From Candidatus Scatosoma sp. (GTDB lineage: Bacteria > Bacillota > Clostridia > Christensenellales > Borkfalkiaceae), in assembly GCA_045656625.1 (NCBI GenBank), contig JAZORL010000185.1, forward strand, positions 1-53,239: 53,239 bases of DNA. The letters are read 5' to 3'. The notes under the pieces are model-generated. The model was not told the origin of the DNA. It ran no database searches and worked only from the letters and a program-made list of their open reading frames with translations. Shown piece after piece: positions 4,844-49,279 of this stretch. Made by a program: the position numbers and the translations under genes. Each line of letters starts with the position of its first letter. The first letter of the stretch is position 1.

Positions 4844-5239
4844 ATGGCGGAAATTATAAAAGTAATCGGCGTGGCTTTCGTTACGGCGCTTACAGCGCTT
4901 TTATTGCGAGGTACAAAGCCTGAATTGTCTTTTGCTGTAACGGTTACAGGCGTTATTGTGATTTTACTATTTATTGTGAATTATATGAAAACAACCCTTG
5001 TTTTTCTTACGGAAATTTCTGGAATGACGGGGTTGGATAATGGGTTGATTAAAATTCTTTTGAAAATTGTCGGTATTGGGTATTTAACGGAATTTAGTGC
5101 TGGAATTTTGAATGATTTTGGGAGTAATGCAGTAGCCGATAAAGTGATTTTAGCTGGTAAATTAACAATGCTCTTTTTAGCCATTCCCGTGATAAAAACA
5201 TTGTTGCAGCTCATGAAAGGCTTTTTAGGACTTGTATGA
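4844..5239 (+). CDS. spoIIIAD: Stage III sporulation protein AD
   Basis: 131-aa polytopic membrane protein at the correct operon position. Confidence 0.8.
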   Translation: MAEIIKVIGVAFVTALTALLLRGTKPELSFAVTVTGVIVILLFIVNYMKTTLVFLTEISGMTGLDNGLIKILLKIVGIGYLTEFSAGILNDFGSNAVADKVILAGKLTMLFLAIPVIKTLLQLMKGFLGLV

Positions 5240-6447
5240 AAAAGGTCGCTTGTTTCTATAAAAAAAACACGAGAATAATATACATATTTTTTATAATTTT
5301 ATGCATATTGTTTCTTTTTACAAACTTTGAATGCAATCCTCTTACGGCAAAGGCGCAAATGGATAAAGCGACGGATGCGGAATTGGAAGAAAATATTCGA
5401 GAACAGCTTGGTCAACTCGAACTGGAAGAATTGGAAAAATACGTACAATCCATTTCTTCCTTTTCGGATAAAGGTGTAATGGAGCGCATTATCGACTTCG
5501 TGAAGGGCGAAAAATTTGATTACGATGGATTTGGTAGACAAATTTTAAGCGTTTTCTTTTCCAAAGTGCAGGAAATTTTGCCAGCCTTTGTATGCATTGC
5601 TGCCATCGCCGTGCTTTCAGGGCTTATTTCTTCCATCAAAAGTCAAGCCCTATTTAATACATCAACGGACTTAATTTCCTTGATTACATATACGGCAACG
5701 CTGATTCCGCTTATTGCGGTCTTAATAGAGTGCTTTTCCCAAACAAAAGGCAGTATTTTGGAGATGGAAAAACAAATAAAGCTCGTCTTTCCGTTGCTCT
5801 TAACGCTTATGGCGGCGAGCGGGAGTACTGCAACCGCAGCAATTTGCCGACCTGCGGTAGCATTTTTTGGATCAACTATTGTTTCTATTATCCTCACGAT
5901 TGTTCTTCCGATTACTGTGACAATTATTGTTTTTTCTATGGCGAGTCACTTGACCAACGAACTAAAAATCGGAAAGTTCACCGCTTTTTTTAAGAGCATT
6001 AATAAGTGGATTATCGGTATCAGTATTACTGTGTTTGGGCTATTCTTTACTTTGCAGGGATTGACGGCGGCGCATAGTGATGGGATTGTGCGTCGGGCGG
6101 TGAAATATGCGATAGGGAATGGTATCCCTATTGTGGGTGGTTTTCTATCGGGTGGATTTGATTTGACGGTAGCAGGTAGCGTTTTAATTAAAAATGCGCT
6201 GGGTAGTATGAGTATTTTTTTGATGATTTCGGTGATTTTTGAACCACTCGTATTATTAATAGCCGTTAACGTGCTTTTGCGCTTAACTGCGGCAATTTCG
6301 CAGCCTTTGGGGGATGGAAAAGTCGCAGATTTTCTCGGGGAAACGGCGGAAAACTTAAATTACTGTACAGCGTCTTTATTGTTTACGGCGTTTATGTATT
6401 TTTTAACGATTGTATTGATGATTACAGCATCGGAGGCGCTCTTTTGA
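5236..6447 (+). CDS. spoIIIAE: Stage III sporulation protein AE
   Basis: 403 aa with a signal/TM N-terminus and a multi-TM C-terminal domain. It overlaps its neighbours by 4 nt. Confidence 0.85.
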   Translation: MKKVACFYKKNTRIIYIFFIILCILFLFTNFECNPLTAKAQMDKATDAELEENIREQLGQLELEELEKYVQSISSFSDKGVMERIIDFVKGEKFDYDGFGRQILSVFFSKVQEILPAFVCIAAIAVLSGLISSIKSQALFNTSTDLISLITYTATLIPLIAVLIECFSQTKGSILEMEKQIKLVFPLLLTLMAASGSTATAAICRPAVAFFGSTIVSIILTIVLPITVTIIVFSMASHLTNELKIGKFTAFFKSINKWIIGISITVFGLFFTLQGLTAAHSDGIVRRAVKYAIGNGIPIVGGFLSGGFDLTVAGSVLIKNALGSMSIFLMISVIFEPLVLLIAVNVLLRLTAAISQPLGDGKVADFLGETAENLNYCTASLLFTAFMYFLTIVLMITASEALF

Positions 6448-43068: not shown

Positions 43069-43950
43069 ATGAACAAATCAACCAAGAAATTTTATATGCA
43101 TAAAATATCCAATCTTTTGAACGTGCAAAAGATCGTCACGATCCACTATCAAACGCTTGGAAAAAACTATGTTTTTCCCGAAGAACAGCACGATTTTTGG
43201 GAAATTAACTATGCGGACAAGGGAAACGTTTTCGTTGGGATAGATGGCGAAAAAATCGAACTTAAACAAGGTGAAATGCTCTTTATTAAACCCAATCAAC
43301 CGCATTTTATGGAAAGCGGAGACAAGGAACCGCACGTATTTATTATTTCCTTTGCTTGTCGTTCGGAATCGATGAACTTTTTCTCGGAAAAGAAATATGC
43401 TGTGCCTGAAAATTACCGCTACTTACTGCAAAATATTATGTCAGAGGCGGAAGACACGTTTGATTTGCCTGAATTCGACCCGAACTTAAATGCATTAAAA
43501 CTGCGTGAAAGCCCCAATCTTGGCGGCGAACAAATTATTAAAAATTCGCTTGAAACGCTACTTATTTATTTGTTGCGCACTGCGCAAAATCGTGCGCACA
43601 CGCAAGAATTCTTTGTTTCCAAAATTGCGGACTCTTCCGAACTTGAAGATGAAATCGTGCGCATTCTTACCTCAAAAATTTACGGCAAGTTCACGCTTGC
43701 GGATTTGAGCAACGAACTCCACTATGGCACGACAAGACTTTGCACCTTTTTCAAAGAAAAAACAGGCAAGAGTATTTATCAAACTTATTTGAAATTGAAG
43801 ATTGACGAGGCGAAACGCCTTATTCGTAAACAAAAAAATTTCTCGGAAATTACGGATATGCTTTGTTTTGACTCTATTTCCACTTTTGCATTTGTATTCA
43901 AAAAACACGTAGGCATGACGCCGAGTGAATATCGAAACAGTATAAAATAA
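43069..43950 (+). CDS. AraC-family transcriptional regulator (cupin sensor + HTH)
   Basis: N-terminal cupin-like region and a C-terminal double HTH (FSEITDMLCFDSISTFAFVFKKHVGMTPSEYR). Confidence 0.88.
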   Translation: MNKSTKKFYMHKISNLLNVQKIVTIHYQTLGKNYVFPEEQHDFWEINYADKGNVFVGIDGEKIELKQGEMLFIKPNQPHFMESGDKEPHVFIISFACRSESMNFFSEKKYAVPENYRYLLQNIMSEAEDTFDLPEFDPNLNALKLRESPNLGGEQIIKNSLETLLIYLLRTAQNRAHTQEFFVSKIADSSELEDEIVRILTSKIYGKFTLADLSNELHYGTTRLCTFFKEKTGKSIYQTYLKLKIDEAKRLIRKQKNFSEITDMLCFDSISTFAFVFKKHVGMTPSEYRNSIK

Positions 43951-43984
43951 AAAGAAACGAAGCGTTTCGCTTCGTTTCTTTTTA
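43948..43984. terminator. Bidirectional terminator (araC-like / ABC exporter)
   Basis: aagaaacgaagcg-ttt-cgcttcgtttctt forms a perfect 13-bp stem (43952-43980) with A/T runs on both sides. Confidence 0.85.
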
Positions 43985-45652
43985 TTTCACTGTTATAATC
44001 GTACCATTTTCAATATTCAAAATAGAATCGGCAATTTCTAATGCTGCAGGTCTATGCGTCACAATAAGACACGTTCGATTGTTGAGTTCCTTCAAATTTT
44101 TTAATAATGCGCCTTCCGTTTCGGTATCCAATGCGCTCGTTGCTTCGTCTAAAAGTAAAATTGGACGATTGGATAATATTGCTCTGGCGACAGCTAAGCG
44201 CTGTCTTTGCCCTTCGGATAAACCGCTGCCCGTTTCCAACAAAACGGTATCTAATCCATCGGGTAAATCGTATACGAAATCCGCACAAGCAACGTTGAGG
44301 GCATTTTTTATTTTTTCTTCGTCAAGCGTTTCCTCGTTAAAGAAAACTAAATTCTCTCGAATTGTACCCGAGAACAAGAAATTTCCTTGCGGAACGTAGG
44401 CAAAAAGTTCTCTATATTTTTCCGTGAGATCTTTATCGCTGTCTTTATAAACAAGCGAAATTTCCCCTGAATTTTGACGAAAAACACGCAATAAAAGCTT
44501 AAATAACGTACTTTTACCTGAGCCCGATGCTCCCGTCAAACAAACAATTTTTCCTTTTTCAAGCAAGGCGGAGGCGTTTTCTAATACTGTTTCTCTACCA
44601 TAAGTAAAGCCGACGTTTTCAAAGCGAATTGCGGATAAATTTTCGTACTGCAAATCCACTACTTCTGCCGATGTATTTTCTTGATCAAGATTGCTGATTT
44701 CCAACAAGCGCTCGCTGCTTGCAAGTCGTGCATAATAGGCAGGTGCAAGCGAGGAAAAGCCTGAAAGCGGCTGTTGAAATTGCATCAAAAGAAGAATAAC
44801 GGAAAGTATTGCTCCGTAATCGTCCATCTTGCCGTTTAATACGCTTACACTACACCAAACAACGGCAAAAATTAAACCAAAATTGCTTAAGAGATTGAAA
44901 AATCCATTCATTAATGAGCGCAAAACGTTTCGTTTCATGCGTTTATCAAAATATACGTTCGTTAACGATTGTGATTTATCGGTGTATTTCCCTTCTGCAC
45001 TATACGCCTTAACGGTCATAATTGCGCCCAAACCTTCTTGCATAAAGGAACGTACTCTTCCATCGCTTTCCATTACTTCTTTATGCCTTTGCTTGAGCTG
45101 TTTTCTAAAAAGGGCAAATAAACCACAAAAAATACCGCCGCAAACGATATAAATAAGTGTAAACCAAGGATCGATCGTAAGCAACGCGACGATTGCCCCA
45201 AAGGTTTGGGCAACCATACCTGCGATTGCAGGCATCAATCCTGCCGTCGTCACGCTGATTTCTGAAATATCGGAAGTGAGACGATTCATAAGCTCGCCGC
45301 TATGATATTCGTTAATTTTTGCGTAATCAGCACTCAAAATTGCGGAAAAGGTTTTTACGCGCAATGCAGAGAATATTTTTGCTCTTAATTTTTCGGTTAA
45401 ATAGCCCGTCCAAGTCTTTAATGCGATTCTAAAAAGCAAAAGCCCGAGCAAACAACCCGAAAAAATCCAAAGCCGTGTGGCTTGCTGATTGGTTGCACTA
45501 TTAATAAGATAACGCACCATGTACGCAAATGCCAAAGAAAATACGGTAGAAAGCACCGTTAAAATAGTCAAAAAAACGATAAATGCAGCATACGGGCGTA
45601 TCTCGTTTTTTAACCATACTTTTCCTTGATTCATTTGCTTGATTTTTTTCAT
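43982..45652 (-). CDS. ABC exporter, fused TMD-NBD half transporter
   Basis: About six N-terminal TM helices, Walker A GASGSGKST, signature LSEGQRQR and Walker B LLLDEATSALD. No C39 peptidase domain. Confidence 0.9.
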   Translation of the reverse strand: MKKIKQMNQGKVWLKNEIRPYAAFIVFLTILTVLSTVFSLAFAYMVRYLINSATNQQATRLWIFSGCLLGLLLFRIALKTWTGYLTEKLRAKIFSALRVKTFSAILSADYAKINEYHSGELMNRLTSDISEISVTTAGLMPAIAGMVAQTFGAIVALLTIDPWFTLIYIVCGGIFCGLFALFRKQLKQRHKEVMESDGRVRSFMQEGLGAIMTVKAYSAEGKYTDKSQSLTNVYFDKRMKRNVLRSLMNGFFNLLSNFGLIFAVVWCSVSVLNGKMDDYGAILSVILLLMQFQQPLSGFSSLAPAYYARLASSERLLEISNLDQENTSAEVVDLQYENLSAIRFENVGFTYGRETVLENASALLEKGKIVCLTGASGSGKSTLFKLLLRVFRQNSGEISLVYKDSDKDLTEKYRELFAYVPQGNFLFSGTIRENLVFFNEETLDEEKIKNALNVACADFVYDLPDGLDTVLLETGSGLSEGQRQRLAVARAILSNRPILLLDEATSALDTETEGALLKNLKELNNRTCLIVTHRPAALEIADSILNIENGTIITVK

Positions 45653-45667
45653 AATACTATCCTATCG

Positions 45668-46135
45668 TTATTTTTGTTTGCGTGGAAAGAAAAATCTAAA
45701 TATTTTTGCGCAAAATCGTCTAATCTTACATTTCGTAAGAACGAAAACTCGGCGTATTTTATAGGTCTTTAAGCGTTTATTCGCATAAGCGATATATTTT
45801 TCATCCGTACACAAAACGTGCTTTCCCTTGCGAAAAAACTCTGTTAAAACGCCAATTACCGCTTCCTCGGGTACGTTTTCGTCGGAATAACAGTTATCAC
45901 CGCGAATGATATAGCCTGTATCCGTTGGTTCTAATACTCGGTGTAAAATATAGGCAGTCCCACGTTTATAAAGCGCAACGTCTAAACGTTTTAACTTTTC
46001 CGTTTTTGGGCGCACGACAATGGTATCTCGCCGATTTTTAAGCATAGGTAACATACTTACGCCTACTGTCGGACCGATATATACGCCCTTTTCTAAAAGC
46101 ACGTCTTCAATTTTGAGTTTTTCAACGTCGCTCAT
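45668..46135 (-). CDS. S26-type (SipW/Sec11-like Ser/His) peptidase lacking an N-terminal membrane anchor
   Basis: GVSMLPML (Ser box), YILHRVL (His where SPase I has Lys) and IRGDNCYSDE (GDN box). ATG 46135 overlaps the upstream stop (ATGA). The C-terminal tail is very basic. Confidence 0.65.
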   Translation of the reverse strand: MSDVEKLKIEDVLLEKGVYIGPTVGVSMLPMLKNRRDTIVVRPKTEKLKRLDVALYKRGTAYILHRVLEPTDTGYIIRGDNCYSDENVPEEAVIGVLTEFFRKGKHVLCTDEKYIAYANKRLKTYKIRRVFVLTKCKIRRFCAKIFRFFFPRKQK

Positions 46136-46395
46136 TCGGCAAACCCGTTTCTCGTCAATATTTCCACGAATCTTTCTACGTCGGTGCGTGCTTTTTCGTC
46201 CGCAACTTCGTATTCCGAGCAAAGTGCCTCTACACCATCGTCAACGGAATGTTCTTCCGTATAAAAACGCCATAAAAATGCGCCTGTCGAATTCAAATTA
46301 ATCATTCCATGGAATTCTTTGCTCATTTTTCCTACGGGTACGACTACCGTTTCACCGCCGACTTCTCTTAAAACAAACCCCTTTTTAATTTGCAT
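46132..46395 (-). CDS. PqqD-family protein (candidate RiPP recognition element)
   Basis: 87 aa. The MQIKKGFVLREVGGETVVVPVG ... INLNSTGAFLW ... EYEVADEKARTDVERFVEILTRNGF pattern is typical of small PqqD-like proteins. Its ATG lies 2 nt after the upstream stop. Confidence 0.65.
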   Translation of the reverse strand: MQIKKGFVLREVGGETVVVPVGKMSKEFHGMINLNSTGAFLWRFYTEEHSVDDGVEALCSEYEVADEKARTDVERFVEILTRNGFAE

Positions 46396-46397
46396 AA

Positions 46398-47114
46398 TTA
46401 TTTCTCCGCGTAATTTTTCCCTGTTAAAGCCTCGAAAGATTTTTGTACAGCTTCTTCTGATATATCGCATTTTAATAAATAGGCAGGTATCATTTCAATA
46501 AGCTTGTCCGCCAATTCTAACGTTGCGATTGCGCCCTCTTCCGTATCAGGGATTAAAAGCTGTGCAAATAAGCGACTTGTCACTTCCTTATTCGTCAATT
46601 TAGTAATGGAATTTTCTTTGGCTTGCTCTAAAAAGCAAAGTCCGCAAAGGGGCGCTTTTGTTTTCTCGCCCCACCCTTCTTTTCCTTGCCAGGGCGTGCC
46701 AAAGGCAATAAATTTCTCTTCCGTACTTGCCAAAATCGGCTTATCACCATTGACGATTTTCGTATTGGGAATATTTTTTAACCAAAGCTTGGTATGGGTA
46801 GATTTGCCCGTACCGCTACGCCCTAAAAATGCGTACGCTTTCCCTTCGTATTCCAAAATAGACGAATGCATTAAAATGCGTCCGAATAAAGGCATTTGCA
46901 TACAGATACTGCGATAAAGACAAATATTTTCAATGTACCCGTCCGAAAAATTCGGGGAAAGCATTTTCTCTTCCTCAAACTCTTCTTTCGTCACCTCCGC
47001 CGTAATATCTACGGGCGAGGACTGATCCTCGGAAAGGTACTTATAACAAAATTTATCCGTGTATGCGTATTGATTTTTGATTAGAACACGAAGTCCTGCA
47101 AGCTCGTATACCAT
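46398..47114 (-). CDS. HPr-kinase-related P-loop protein (HprK C-domain-like)
   Basis: GRSGTGKSTHT P-loop sits mid-protein after a beta-rich N-half and is followed by GDKP/GTPW segments. This resembles HprK-related kinases found in peptide-modification clusters. Assignment is by motif only. Confidence 0.5.
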   Translation of the reverse strand: MVYELAGLRVLIKNQYAYTDKFCYKYLSEDQSSPVDITAEVTKEEFEEEKMLSPNFSDGYIENICLYRSICMQMPLFGRILMHSSILEYEGKAYAFLGRSGTGKSTHTKLWLKNIPNTKIVNGDKPILASTEEKFIAFGTPWQGKEGWGEKTKAPLCGLCFLEQAKENSITKLTNKEVTSRLFAQLLIPDTEEGAIATLELADKLIEMIPAYLLKCDISEEAVQKSFEALTGKNYAEK

Positions 47115-47124
47115 AAACTAAAAA

Positions 47125-47295
47125 TTAATAACTACTTGTCCACTCCCCATCGGGATCGTCAGGATTGCTGGGGCGATTGCTGTTAGGGGGTTCTTTAATC
47201 GTTTCCGTCACGCAATCCGAACACCCAGCAAATGCAAATGCGACGACAAAAGTCAACGCCATGCAAAGGGATAAAAGTGCTCTTTTCAATTTCAT
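47125..47295 (-). CDS. 56-aa secreted/lipoprotein-like small peptide (candidate precursor)
   Basis: AAGGAG lies 6 nt upstream of ATG 47295. The sequence is MKLKR + hydrophobic core + lipobox-like FAGC, followed by a 32-aa Pro/Asn/Asp-rich tail ending TSSY. The longer track ORF (to 47346) would overlap purB. Confidence 0.6.
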   Translation of the reverse strand: MKLKRALLSLCMALTFVVAFAFAGCSDCVTETIKEPPNSNRPSNPDDPDGEWTSSY

Positions 47296-47305
47296 ATCTA
47301 ACTCC

Positions 47306-48751
47306 TTACACGCGTACGTCGCCCTTTTCACCAAGGAGCGTAGCATGCTTTTCTAAAATGGGATCGATTTCATTGGCGATAAATTCAACCGTTTGCGAGG
47401 GAGCTCTACCGATAAATTTACTTGCATCCAAAATTTCGTCAATCTTATCCCAAACGGGGCGGAACATTTCGTCCGCTTTGATTAAATCGATCAAATTATT
47501 GTCTTTTCCTTCCACTTTCACGTTTTTACCTGCTTCCATGGAAAGCTGACGGATTCTTTCGTGGAGTTCCTGTCTATCTCCACCTGCTTTTACACAACCC
47601 ATCATAATATTTTCCGTTGCCATAAACGGTAATTCCGCACGAATATGTTTCGCAATAACCTTTTCATAGACAACAAGGTTTTCCGCAACGTTCATATAAA
47701 TATTCAAAATTGCGTCTACCGACAAGAAGGCTTGTGCGTTTACGATACGGCGGTTTGCGGAATCGTCTAACGTTCTTTCAAACCATTGCGTTGATGCAGT
47801 CAACGCACTATTCATCGGCAAGGAAATTACGTATCTTGCCAATGCGCCGATACGCTCCGAACGCATAGGATTGCGCTTGTATGCCATCGCCGACGACCCG
47901 ATTTGGTTCTTTTCAAACGGTTCTTCGATTTCCTTCATATTTTGTAAAATACGGATATCATTCGAGAACTTATACGCACTTTGCGCGATTTGCGAAAGTA
48001 CGCAAAGGATATTATAATCGAGTTTGCGGGGATACGTTTGACCCGTCACGCCGTATACTTTATCATAACCAAGCTTGGAAACAACTTTTTGTTCAAGGGC
48101 TTTAATCTTTTCTTCGTCACCGTTGAAAAGCTCCATAAAGCTTGCTTGCGTACCCGTCGTACCCTTTACCCCGCGAAGCTTGATGTTTTCCTTCGCATTC
48201 ATAAGGTTTACGTAGTCCATTTCTAAATCTTGCAACCAAAGAGTTGCACGTTTGCCAACCGTCGTGAGTTGCGCAGGCTGTAAATGGGTAAAGCCAAGCG
48301 TAGGCACGTCTTTATATTTAAGGGCAAATTTTTTCAGCTTGTCCATAACGTTGACGAGCTTTTTCAAAATAATATCAAGCGCTTCGTCAAGCATAATTGC
48401 TTCGGCGTTGCAGTTTACAAAGCAACTGGTAGCCCCAAGATGAATAATGGGTTTCCCCTTTTGCGCGTACTCGCCGTATGCCTTTACGTGCGCCATAACG
48501 TCGTGACGGACTTCTCTTTCAAACTTTGCCGCCAATTCATAATCGATTTCGTCGGCGTATTTTTTCAAATCGTCTACTTGCTCTTGCGTGACGTTCAAGC
48601 CAAGCTCCATTTCCGATTCCGCAAGCGCAATCCAAAGCTTTCTCCAAAGCTTGAAACGCTTTTCATCGGAAAATGCGTGCTGCATATCTTTGCTTGCATA
48701 ACGGGTAATAAGCGGGTTAGTATAAATGCTGTTATCAATCATATTTTTCAC
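47306..48751 (-). CDS. purB: Adenylosuccinate lyase
   Basis: Fumarate-lyase signature GSSAMAYKRNP, 481 aa, and N-terminal YTNPLITRYASKDM. Confidence 0.95.
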   Translation of the reverse strand: MKNMIDNSIYTNPLITRYASKDMQHAFSDEKRFKLWRKLWIALAESEMELGLNVTQEQVDDLKKYADEIDYELAAKFEREVRHDVMAHVKAYGEYAQKGKPIIHLGATSCFVNCNAEAIMLDEALDIILKKLVNVMDKLKKFALKYKDVPTLGFTHLQPAQLTTVGKRATLWLQDLEMDYVNLMNAKENIKLRGVKGTTGTQASFMELFNGDEEKIKALEQKVVSKLGYDKVYGVTGQTYPRKLDYNILCVLSQIAQSAYKFSNDIRILQNMKEIEEPFEKNQIGSSAMAYKRNPMRSERIGALARYVISLPMNSALTASTQWFERTLDDSANRRIVNAQAFLSVDAILNIYMNVAENLVVYEKVIAKHIRAELPFMATENIMMGCVKAGGDRQELHERIRQLSMEAGKNVKVEGKDNNLIDLIKADEMFRPVWDKIDEILDASKFIGRAPSQTVEFIANEIDPILEKHATLLGEKGDVRV

Positions 48752-48757
48752 CTATCT

Positions 48758-49279
48758 TTATACTTTTTCAGGCTCGGGATATTCAACGCCGAACGTTTCT
48801 ACCGTGACGGACTTCATCTTTTGCTCTTCGTAGGGCTTATCATACCAATCGGTCTTGACCGAAGCAATTTCGTCGACCGTTTCCATGCCTTCAATCACCT
48901 TACCAAACGCCGCGTATTGACCGTCGAGATAATCTGCATCATCGTGCATTACAAAGAATTGTGAGCCTGCTGAATCGGGGTGTTGCGCTCTCGCCATTGA
49001 GAGTACGCCACGCACGTGCTCAATATCGTTTTTCGTAAAACCATTGCCTGCGAATTCCCCTTTAATACGATAGCCAGGGCCACCCGTACCACGTCCGTCG
49101 GGATCACCGCCTTGAATCATAAAGCCTGCGATTACACGGTGAAAAATAATGCCGTTATAATAACCTTTCTTTACGAGAGAGATAAAGTTATTTACAGTAT
49201 TCGGCGCTTTTTCGGGATAAAGCTCTGCCTTAAAGGTTTTTCCATTTGTCATTTCAAAAGTTATAATAGGATTGCTCAT
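48758..49279 (-). CDS. ppiB: Peptidyl-prolyl cis-trans isomerase, cyclophilin type
   Basis: FHRVIAGFMIQGGDP and SQFFV motifs. Confidence 0.92.
   Translation of the reverse strand: MSNPIITFEMTNGKTFKAELYPEKAPNTVNNFISLVKKGYYNGIIFHRVIAGFMIQGGDPDGRGTGGPGYRIKGEFAGNGFTKNDIEHVRGVLSMARAQHPDSAGSQFFVMHDDADYLDGQYAAFGKVIEGMETVDEIASVKTDWYDKPYEEQKMKSVTVETFGVEYPEPEKV

Follow-up and report, generated by a model that had tools for sequence, protein, structure and literature searches.

A probable mini-lipoprotein with a genus-specific C-terminal tag beside an LPP-type peptide cassette in gut Clostridia

A small ORF located between purB and a peptide-modification cassette in Candidatus Scatosoma sp. is, as comparison with its relatives shows, a real gene under purifying selection. 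It is highly probable that its product is a genuine exported lipoprotein and not a substrate that depends on the RRE of the cassette, and the last residues of the product are a variant of a genus-specific C-terminal tag, WTxNY-stop. The ORF is in a 53,239-nucleotide stretch of DNA (contig JAZORL010000185.1; hereafter the window), and the cassette downstream of it is of the LPP (linear polyphosphorylated peptide) type.

Position and signals of the small ORF

The small ORF lies on the minus strand at 47295-47125 (ATG at 47295-47293, stop at 47127-47125) and has 56 amino acids plus the stop codon; the translation printed for it in a preliminary description of the window is exact. Its ATG is 10 nt from the stop codon of purB, and its own stop is 10 nt from the ATG of lppK (47114). 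A strong ribosome-binding site with a 6-nt spacer, also claimed in that description, is present as AAGGAG at 47307-47302, followed by the spacer TTAGAT. An alternative, longer reading frame from an in-frame ATG at 47346 overlaps purB, and because the orthologues begin MKLK we regard that ATG as a non-conserved start. We found no minus-strand terminator-like sites between purB, the small ORF and lppK, and the best candidate for an internal promoter in the 3' end of purB was a 9/12 consensus match, no better than shuffled sequence gives. The features of the ORF and of the operon behind it are:

47302..47307, minus strand: Shine-Dalgarno sequence AAGGAG, with a 6-nt spacer to the ATG and overlapping the purB stop codon (gTAAGGAG); read from the sequence.
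47125..47295, minus strand: predicted pre-lipoprotein ORF of 56 aa with a C-terminal W-T-S-S-Y tag; from orthologues and purifying selection.
47224..47295, minus strand: predicted lipoprotein signal peptide, residues 1-24 (MKLKRALLSLCMALTFVVAFAFAG), with lipobox A-F-A-G and then Cys25 (codon 47223-47221); from a PROSITE-type regex and 0 non-synonymous changes against orthologue L114.
47152..47223, minus strand: predicted mature N-terminus Cys25 and Pro/Asn/Asp-rich linker, residues 25-48, the linker hypervariable between species in length and sequence; from alignments and DNA comparison.
47128..47151, minus strand: C-terminal tag D-G-E-W-T-S-S-Y-COOH, acidic and conserved (the consensus for the genus is D-D-[E/G]-W-T-x-N-Y); from position counts and genus-wide enrichment of the DNA pattern.
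46398..47114, minus strand: lppK-like P-loop kinase with HPr-kinase/PEPCK fold; from an AF2 model, Foldseek and a weak ScmC match.
46132..46395, minus strand: lppB-like discrete RRE of the PqqD family; from Pfam PqqD, lasso PqqD models and PDB matches.
45668..46135, minus strand: lppS-like soluble protein, a probable homologue of SipW/archaeal-type signal peptidase I, with Ser27, His65 and Asp80, no TM helix and a basic C-terminal tail.
43982..45652, minus strand: lppD-like MsbA-type ABC exporter; from Pfam and NCBIfam matches.
43945..43987, minus strand: terminator with a 20-bp stem that closes the operon; from a terminator scan.

Conservation of the small ORF within the genus

We surveyed the DNA upstream of the kinase gene at 88 loci from the same GTDB genus, several members of which carry the NCBI labels 'Candidatus Scatosoma' or 'Clostridia bacterium' and are MAGs from ruminant and other guts. 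The preliminary description had proposed a search for a small ORF at the equivalent position of related cassettes, and one is present at 27 of the 88 loci. These slot ORFs encode 42-101 aa, and 25 of the 27 have their stop codon within 15 nt of the lppK ATG; one additional locus has a slot ORF with a GTG start. At the remaining loci the kinase gene is directly abutted by purB or by a PPIase gene. Outside the tag, identity between slot ORFs falls to 15-30%, with the slot and the tight spacing kept, in species whose lppK is 50-70% identical. In some members of the genus (L109, L172, L175, L177, L189 and L203) it is a cyclophilin-type PPIase gene, not purB, that lies directly before the small ORF or lppK. 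The window has its PPIase gene at 48758-49279, upstream of purB, so purB seems to have been moved or lost at this junction in some lineages.

L114 is the closest orthologue of the small ORF (kinase identity 93%); over the first 34 codons the two differ by 7 synonymous and 0 non-synonymous codon changes. This synonymous-only region comprises the signal peptide plus CSDCVTETIKE, which points to purifying selection on the signal peptide. A second orthologue, L165, differs by 14 synonymous and 3 non-synonymous changes in the first 28 codons. DNA comparison of the orthologues shows that behind the conserved N-terminal part the linker is hypervariable and the tail is retained. The family is otherwise inconspicuous in databases: Pfam and NCBIfam models gave no match to the small ORF, and a profile made from 23 orthologues, searched against 5.8 billion proteins, found 30 matches of 48-77 aa, none of which has a Pfam domain and 5 of which bear a source name, 'hypothetical protein' in each case.

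That the small ORF is a chance reading frame in an AT-rich intergenic stretch, and no gene, is exceedingly improbable. In favour of chance, ORFs of 56 codons are common by chance in the window, the domain models are silent, and RNA contigs from two bovine metatranscriptome runs, which are fragments only, leave 47125-47295 uncovered. The comparative data refute it: divergence is synonymous-only, the start codon and RBS are conserved, and the tag is both conserved in 27 species and enriched as a pattern (92 occurrences versus 6; see below). Fragmentary contigs from two bovine gut metatranscriptome studies have 98-100% identity to parts of lppK (window 46403-47001) and purB; this is weak evidence for cattle as a host of this species or a near relative and for possible transcription of lppK.

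A lipoprotein-type N-terminus

The n-, h- and lipobox regions of a lipoprotein signal peptide, as noted in the preliminary description, can all be recognised in the small ORF. Charges at K2, K4 and R5 are followed by a hydrophobic h-region and A-F-A-G-C25, and the segment FVVAFAFAG before C25 matches a PROSITE PS51257-type lipobox regex (no charge in the 6 residues preceding [LIVMFWSTAG]2-[LIVMFYSTAGCQ]-[AGS]-C, within about the first 40 residues). A signal-like or TM N-terminal segment is found in 27/27 slot ORFs; by regex 18 of them have a strict lipobox, and the remainder mostly have a near-lipobox or a plain TM anchor. The genome encodes Lgt three times (PF01790) and LspA once (PF01252), all above the cut-off. 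The lipobox count, the LspA and three Lgt genes and the selection on the signal peptide support the first of two readings offered earlier, that of a genuine tiny lipoprotein; a counterpoint is the Phe at lipobox position -3, a residue rarer there than Leu, Val or Ile.

The product resembles known bacterial lipoproteins (Lgt/LspA; PS51257) in its positive n-region, hydrophobic h-region and lipobox A-F-A-G-C, and Firmicute lipoproteins in the Ser/Asp-rich start of its mature chain; Lgt and LspA, as stated, are encoded in the genome. It differs from them in that its mature part is only 32 residues long, with no folded domain and a conserved motif at the extreme C-terminus, and in that translation of its gene is coupled to that of a RiPP cassette. 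We infer that the product is lipidated and displayed at the cell surface.

An LPP-type cassette with dispersed precursors

LPP clusters, with gene order lppA-K-B-S-D-N, are known from Paenibacillus alginolyticus (Popov et al., Nat Commun, May 2026; PMC13381572). There, LppB binds a YxxP leader, LppK polyphosphorylates the core Ser+3, and LppS cuts after Thr-1, solely when the leader is presented by LppB; LppS alone does not cleave (PMC13381572). The biological role of LPPs was stated to be unknown, and their C-termini were described as highly variable; the paper makes no mention of Clostridia, lipoproteins or C-terminal tags (PMC13381572).

The operon in the window has the same kinds of genes in the same order as these clusters: an HprK-fold kinase, a discrete PqqD/RRE protein, a candidate soluble SipW-like Ser/His peptidase and an MsbA-like exporter. 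Sequence searches of the PDB were uninformative for lppK and lppS, giving P-loop-only and chance matches; for lppK a fold search was needed. The AF2 model of its product (pLDDT 95.1) matched HprK/P (1kkl, 1jb1, 1ko7) and ATP-PEPCK with Foldseek prob 1.0, and there is a weak match to ScmC (E = 2.8e-5). The lppB product matches PF05402 (3e-16) and the 'PqqD family protein' 9x8z_B in the PDB (E = 0.0024), as well as TfuB1 and TbiB1, its nearest solved relatives. The match of the lppS product to TIGR02228 (sigpep_I_arch; E = 2.8e-6, 27 bits) is below the cut-off of 51.85, and the spacing of its Ser27/His65/Asp80, read from the sequence, resembles that of S29/H68/D93 in LppS (PMC13381572). This gene is conserved beside K and B in 80 loci. 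The K-B-S(-D) unit occurs at no fewer than 596 loci in Clostridia genomes, and the cassette (lppK) is present in 93 of 121 genomes of the genus, including 32 of the 34 high-quality ones.

Also in common with P. alginolyticus (PMC13381572), the genome has YxxP-type LppA precursors and an NTP_transf_5 gene (PF14907; candidate LppN), which here is unlinked and located at C114:7741-8430 on the plus strand. In the distant relatives L061 and L062 the NTP_transf_5 gene is inside the cluster, after the exporter. The differences from the P. alginolyticus clusters are that the gene in the lppA slot here encodes a lipoprotein signal peptide instead of a YxxP...FETxxS leader, that the LppA-type genes (Clostridial leader Y-x-x-P-x-h-E-h-h-x-F-E-x-E-D-V-I-T-x-S) are dispersed beside genes for giant surface proteins, that lppN is outside the operon, and that the cassette, adjoining purB, is near-core, as opposed to an element of patchy occurrence within capsule loci.

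Small ORFs beside distant cassettes begin M-x-K-Y-x-x-P-E-h-E-h-h-x-F-E-x-E-D-V-I-T-x-S and continue into a short acidic tail, a pattern that is the Clostridial version of the LppA leader; such peptides occupy the slot upstream of lppK in L085, L086 and L093. Searching the window's own genome with a profile of this leader (A3), we found 7 ORFs at E<=0.001; relaxing the threshold to E<=1.1 brings the number to 12, each on a contig of its own, and the small ORF is not among these 12. Across the genus, 85 of 121 genomes have matches. The genes in the window's genome are at C145:4389-4586(+), C68:28931-29095(-), C152:319-459(+), C29:1264-1428(+), C53:19652-19801(+), C84:11107-11253(+), C38:10399-10530(+) and C78:31342-31470(-), with the rest on C12, C188, C21 and C88. 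Their leaders read Y-x-x-[P/L]-x-h-E-h-h-x-F-x-x-E-D-[IV]-[IV]-x-x-S, and their acidic cores end in DFPExFG/WG, GWGQ or DWG[FI]. In most cases the immediately flanking genes encode secreted proteins or lipoproteins of 700-2000 aa. Pfam and NCBIfam searches with the LppA-type peptides and other tag-bearing proteins found no family for the peptides or for the tag, returning only signal-peptide look-alikes and Listeria-Bacteroides repeats. With 7-12 dispersed LppA-type precursors in the genome, the cassette needs no lipobox ORF as its substrate.

The small ORF as a candidate cassette substrate

The other reading in the preliminary description was that the hydrophobic N-terminus is a leader recognised by the PqqD-like protein and cut by the S26-like peptidase, with Ser/Thr near the C-terminus as kinase targets. 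Position alone would suit a precursor: the small ORF is 10 nt upstream of lppK on the same strand, the adjacency to lppK-B-S-D expected of LppA. However, the motif [YW]xxP is absent from the first 30 residues of 27/27 slot ORFs, whose N-termini share hydrophobicity only, and the two Ser are not conserved among the 27 orthologues. Because there is no leader motif, because LppS needs a leader presented by LppB, and because the two Ser are not conserved, this reading is not supported; it is also disfavoured because LppS is soluble whereas the lipobox site faces outward, and because canonical precursors are encoded elsewhere in the genome.

Put more fully, it would make the small ORF a leader-swapped LPP precursor that is still a substrate, with LppK phosphorylating Ser26 or the Thr or Tyr of the tail, LppS trimming it and/or LppD exporting it. 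The ORF occupies the exact position of lppA in the lppA-K-B-S-D-N order (PMC13381572) with 10-nt coupling, the slot that LppA-type peptides fill in the distant Clostridia named above, and its acidic, Trp-containing tail resembles LppA cores. Both the Thr and the Tyr in the tag could be phosphorylated, and the kinases of the paeninodin type use the C-terminal residue as target (PMC13381572); the P. alginolyticus LppK, though, did not accept Thr or Tyr instead of Ser (PMC13381572). Sequence CSDC[VI]T[ED][TS] of this subclade loosely resembles the leader-core junction EDVITTS, but the likeness is one residue out of register and occurs in three close relatives only; we considered it as a vestige of a leader and rejected that, since it is probably due to chance. 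The lack of YxxP in all orthologues and the dependence of LppS on LppB weigh against it, as do the solubility of LppS here, with a lipobox cleavage site that faces outward, and the presence of the same tag on Sec lipoproteins longer than 500 aa. Furthermore, lipoboxes and TM anchors are interchangeable at the N-termini of the slot ORFs, some of which (L002 and L003) add a long, Lys-rich cytoplasmic extension; this indicates membrane anchoring rather than RRE binding. We consider a leader-swapped precursor quite unlikely.

Kinase-containing lasso peptide clusters (paeninodin/pseudomycoidin), in which the modified site is a hydroxyl residue in a small ribosomal peptide, share with the operon a PqqD-type RRE, an ABC exporter and an HprK-like kinase. 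Unlike them, the operon in the window has no lasso cyclase or B2 protease among its ORFs, and the small ORF has neither the [Y/W]xxPxL leader nor the Thr at -2 of lasso precursors. Its C-terminal residue is Tyr, not the Ser of phosphorylated lasso peptides, and the Ser residues that it does have, at -2 and -3, are not conserved.

A C-terminal tag on lipoproteins and LppA-type peptides

The T-S-S-Y ending singled out in the preliminary description proved to be conserved in part: T(-4) and Y(-1) are conserved, as is W(-5), and both Ser are peculiar to the window's species. Among the 27 slot ORFs, W(-5) is found in 24 and T(-4), N(-2) and Y(-1) in 23 each, so the T-S-S-Y of the window is a variant of a motif in which position -2 is normally Asn. 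As a DNA pattern, W-T-x-N-Y-stop has 92 occurrences in 121 genomes of the genus, compared to 6 for a reversed control; outside the genus, in the same order, there are 14 occurrences in 199 genomes, which is no more than the control. The proteins that carry the tag differ widely in size: the smallest are 35-aa peptides, and at the other extreme are lipoproteins, over 500 aa long, that contain Listeria-Bacteroides repeats. Of 20 full-length tag-bearing ORFs elsewhere in the genus, 14 have a lipobox. Most of the tag-bearing proteins are large lipoproteins whose genes are distant from the cassette. The other carriers in the window's genome are two large proteins with Listeria-Bacteroides repeats (Flg_new), at C120:1057-2901(-) and C136:125-460(+), which end in ...DQWTNNY and ...SEWTNNY, respectively.

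The tag is also present on peptides of the LppA type that have no signal peptide, in L116 and L125 (leader-profile E = 3e-14 and 4e-13); it is further found in an array of genome G092. In L116 (positions 1342-2127; contig C2 of genome G011, same genus) three genes stand in tandem, for a lipoprotein of 153 aa, an LppA-type peptide of 48 aa and a lipoprotein of 52 aa, and each product ends in W-T-S-N-[YF]; in this genome, which is 80% complete, no lppK was found. The shared tails in the array are written with different codons, and this rules out a recent DNA duplication as the cause of the tail sharing.

Other tails are shared in a similar manner. L062 (positions 5208-5940), from a Lachnospiraceae MAG (JAGBCB010000014.1), has an LppA-type peptide ending in ...GELPFVPAE and, directly upstream of lppK, a PT-repeat lipoprotein ending in ...IELPFVPAF; these are the only two ORFs with the ending P-F-V-P-A-x-stop in its 3.2-Mb genome. 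Before them is a gene for a 1703-aa LRR protein of the BspA type. In the window's own genome, lipoproteins of about 690 aa beside LppA-type genes (C38:8320-10530 and C78:31342-33567) end in ...NDWGL and ...NSWGI, mirroring the adjacent LppA cores, which end in ...EDWGF and ...DDWGI.

Like the C-terminal sorting tags of the LPXTG/sortase and PEP-CTERM/exosortase systems, the WTxNY tag is a short, lineage-specific motif on many otherwise unrelated exported proteins. Unlike them, it is a free C-terminus with no TM helix or basic tail after it; we found no sortase- or exosortase-like partner for it, and no NCBIfam C-terminal sorting model matches.

Is the small ORF a bystander?

If the small ORF encodes a lipoprotein, it could still be an ordinary one, functionally unconnected with the cassette. 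WTxNY would then be an ending of surface proteins in this genus, for example a tail that binds the wall or S-layer, and one of the small members of the set would by chance have come to lie next to lppK, behind purB, in a single lineage. This is consistent with the absence of the ORF from 61 of the 88 cassette-bearing loci, with the many unlinked large lipoproteins that have the tag, and with several tag-positive genomes that have no lppK match; these are all 67-84% complete, and tag and cassette show no clean coupling across MAGs. LppA-type matches average 4.2 in genomes that have the small ORF and 1.2 in those without it (about 3.4-fold), a comparison that is descriptive only because the genomes are related and not independent, and the association may be phylogenetic inertia.

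A pure bystander is nevertheless hard to reconcile with a slot and spacing that recur in orthologues whose identity outside the tag falls as low as 15-30%, at lppK identities of only 50-70%, or with leader peptides of the LppA type that bear the same tag. The view is weakened further by the independent parallel in Lachnospiraceae, where a private tail is restricted to an LppA-type peptide and the lipoprotein adjacent to lppK. We judge it unlikely. Of the earlier reading, a genuine tiny lipoprotein that 'merely sits beside the cassette', the lipoprotein is supported, and it is the 'merely' that understates the link, in view of the recurrent slot, the tail on the LppA-type precursors of L116 and L125, and the roughly 3.4-fold higher number of LppA-type genes.

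Discussion

In the explanation that we prefer, the small ORF would be translated from the purB-distal end of an operon consisting of the small ORF, lppK, lppB, lppS and lppD. Its 24-residue signal peptide would direct the product to Sec, Lgt would lipidate Cys25, and LspA would cut between Gly24 and Cys25, so that a lipopeptide of 32 residues would remain on the outside of the membrane, where a disordered, acidic, Pro-rich linker would present the free C-terminal tag DGEWTSSY. The RRE-dependent LPP substrates would be the dispersed LppA-type genes (at least 7) with YxxP-type leaders, not the small ORF. The tag is common to large surface lipoproteins with Listeria-Bacteroides repeats and a few LppA-type precursors, and the LppA cores of this genome have comparable acidic endings with Trp or Phe. 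The mini-lipoprotein is therefore best understood as an LPP-like core tethered to the membrane, with the Sec/lipoprotein route as the means by which this C-terminal short linear motif would reach the surface. There it would presumably dock to, or compete for, the same extracellular partner as the LPPs; a common binding partner and a functional interplay with LPPs are what we infer. The small ORF must be dispensable for the cassette, since 61 of 88 species keep the cassette without it. As a whole, this explanation (a genuine tiny lipoprotein that is not a substrate and is linked to the cassette through its tag) is the one towards which we lean, by a modest degree.

For genome mining, the small ORF carries a caution: an ORF in the 'A' slot of such a cluster need not be a precursor. 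The LPP cassette comes close to being part of the core genome across a whole genus of gut Clostridia. Peptides of the LPP type and lipoproteins, including a mini-lipoprotein embedded in the operon, have private C-terminal tags in common, and this sharing of tails hints at the purpose of the LPP peptide system. More speculatively, in a proposal that we regard as doubtful, short lineage-specific tags such as DD-x-W-T-x-N-Y in this genus and [IL]-L-P-x-V-P in relatives among Lachnospiraceae/Ruminococcus would be address labels common to LPP cores and Sec-exported surface lipoproteins. LPPs would then be parts of a system for surface assembly or anchoring, not antibiotics, in which a phospho(-glycosyl)ated peptide and a mini-lipoprotein tether the same tag-binding partner to different layers of the envelope. 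This partner may be a giant surface protein encoded beside LppA genes. If the tag is a docking motif, the tag peptide (...PDDPDGEWTSSY-COOH) could serve as bait for the partner of the LPPs and so lead to the function of the system.
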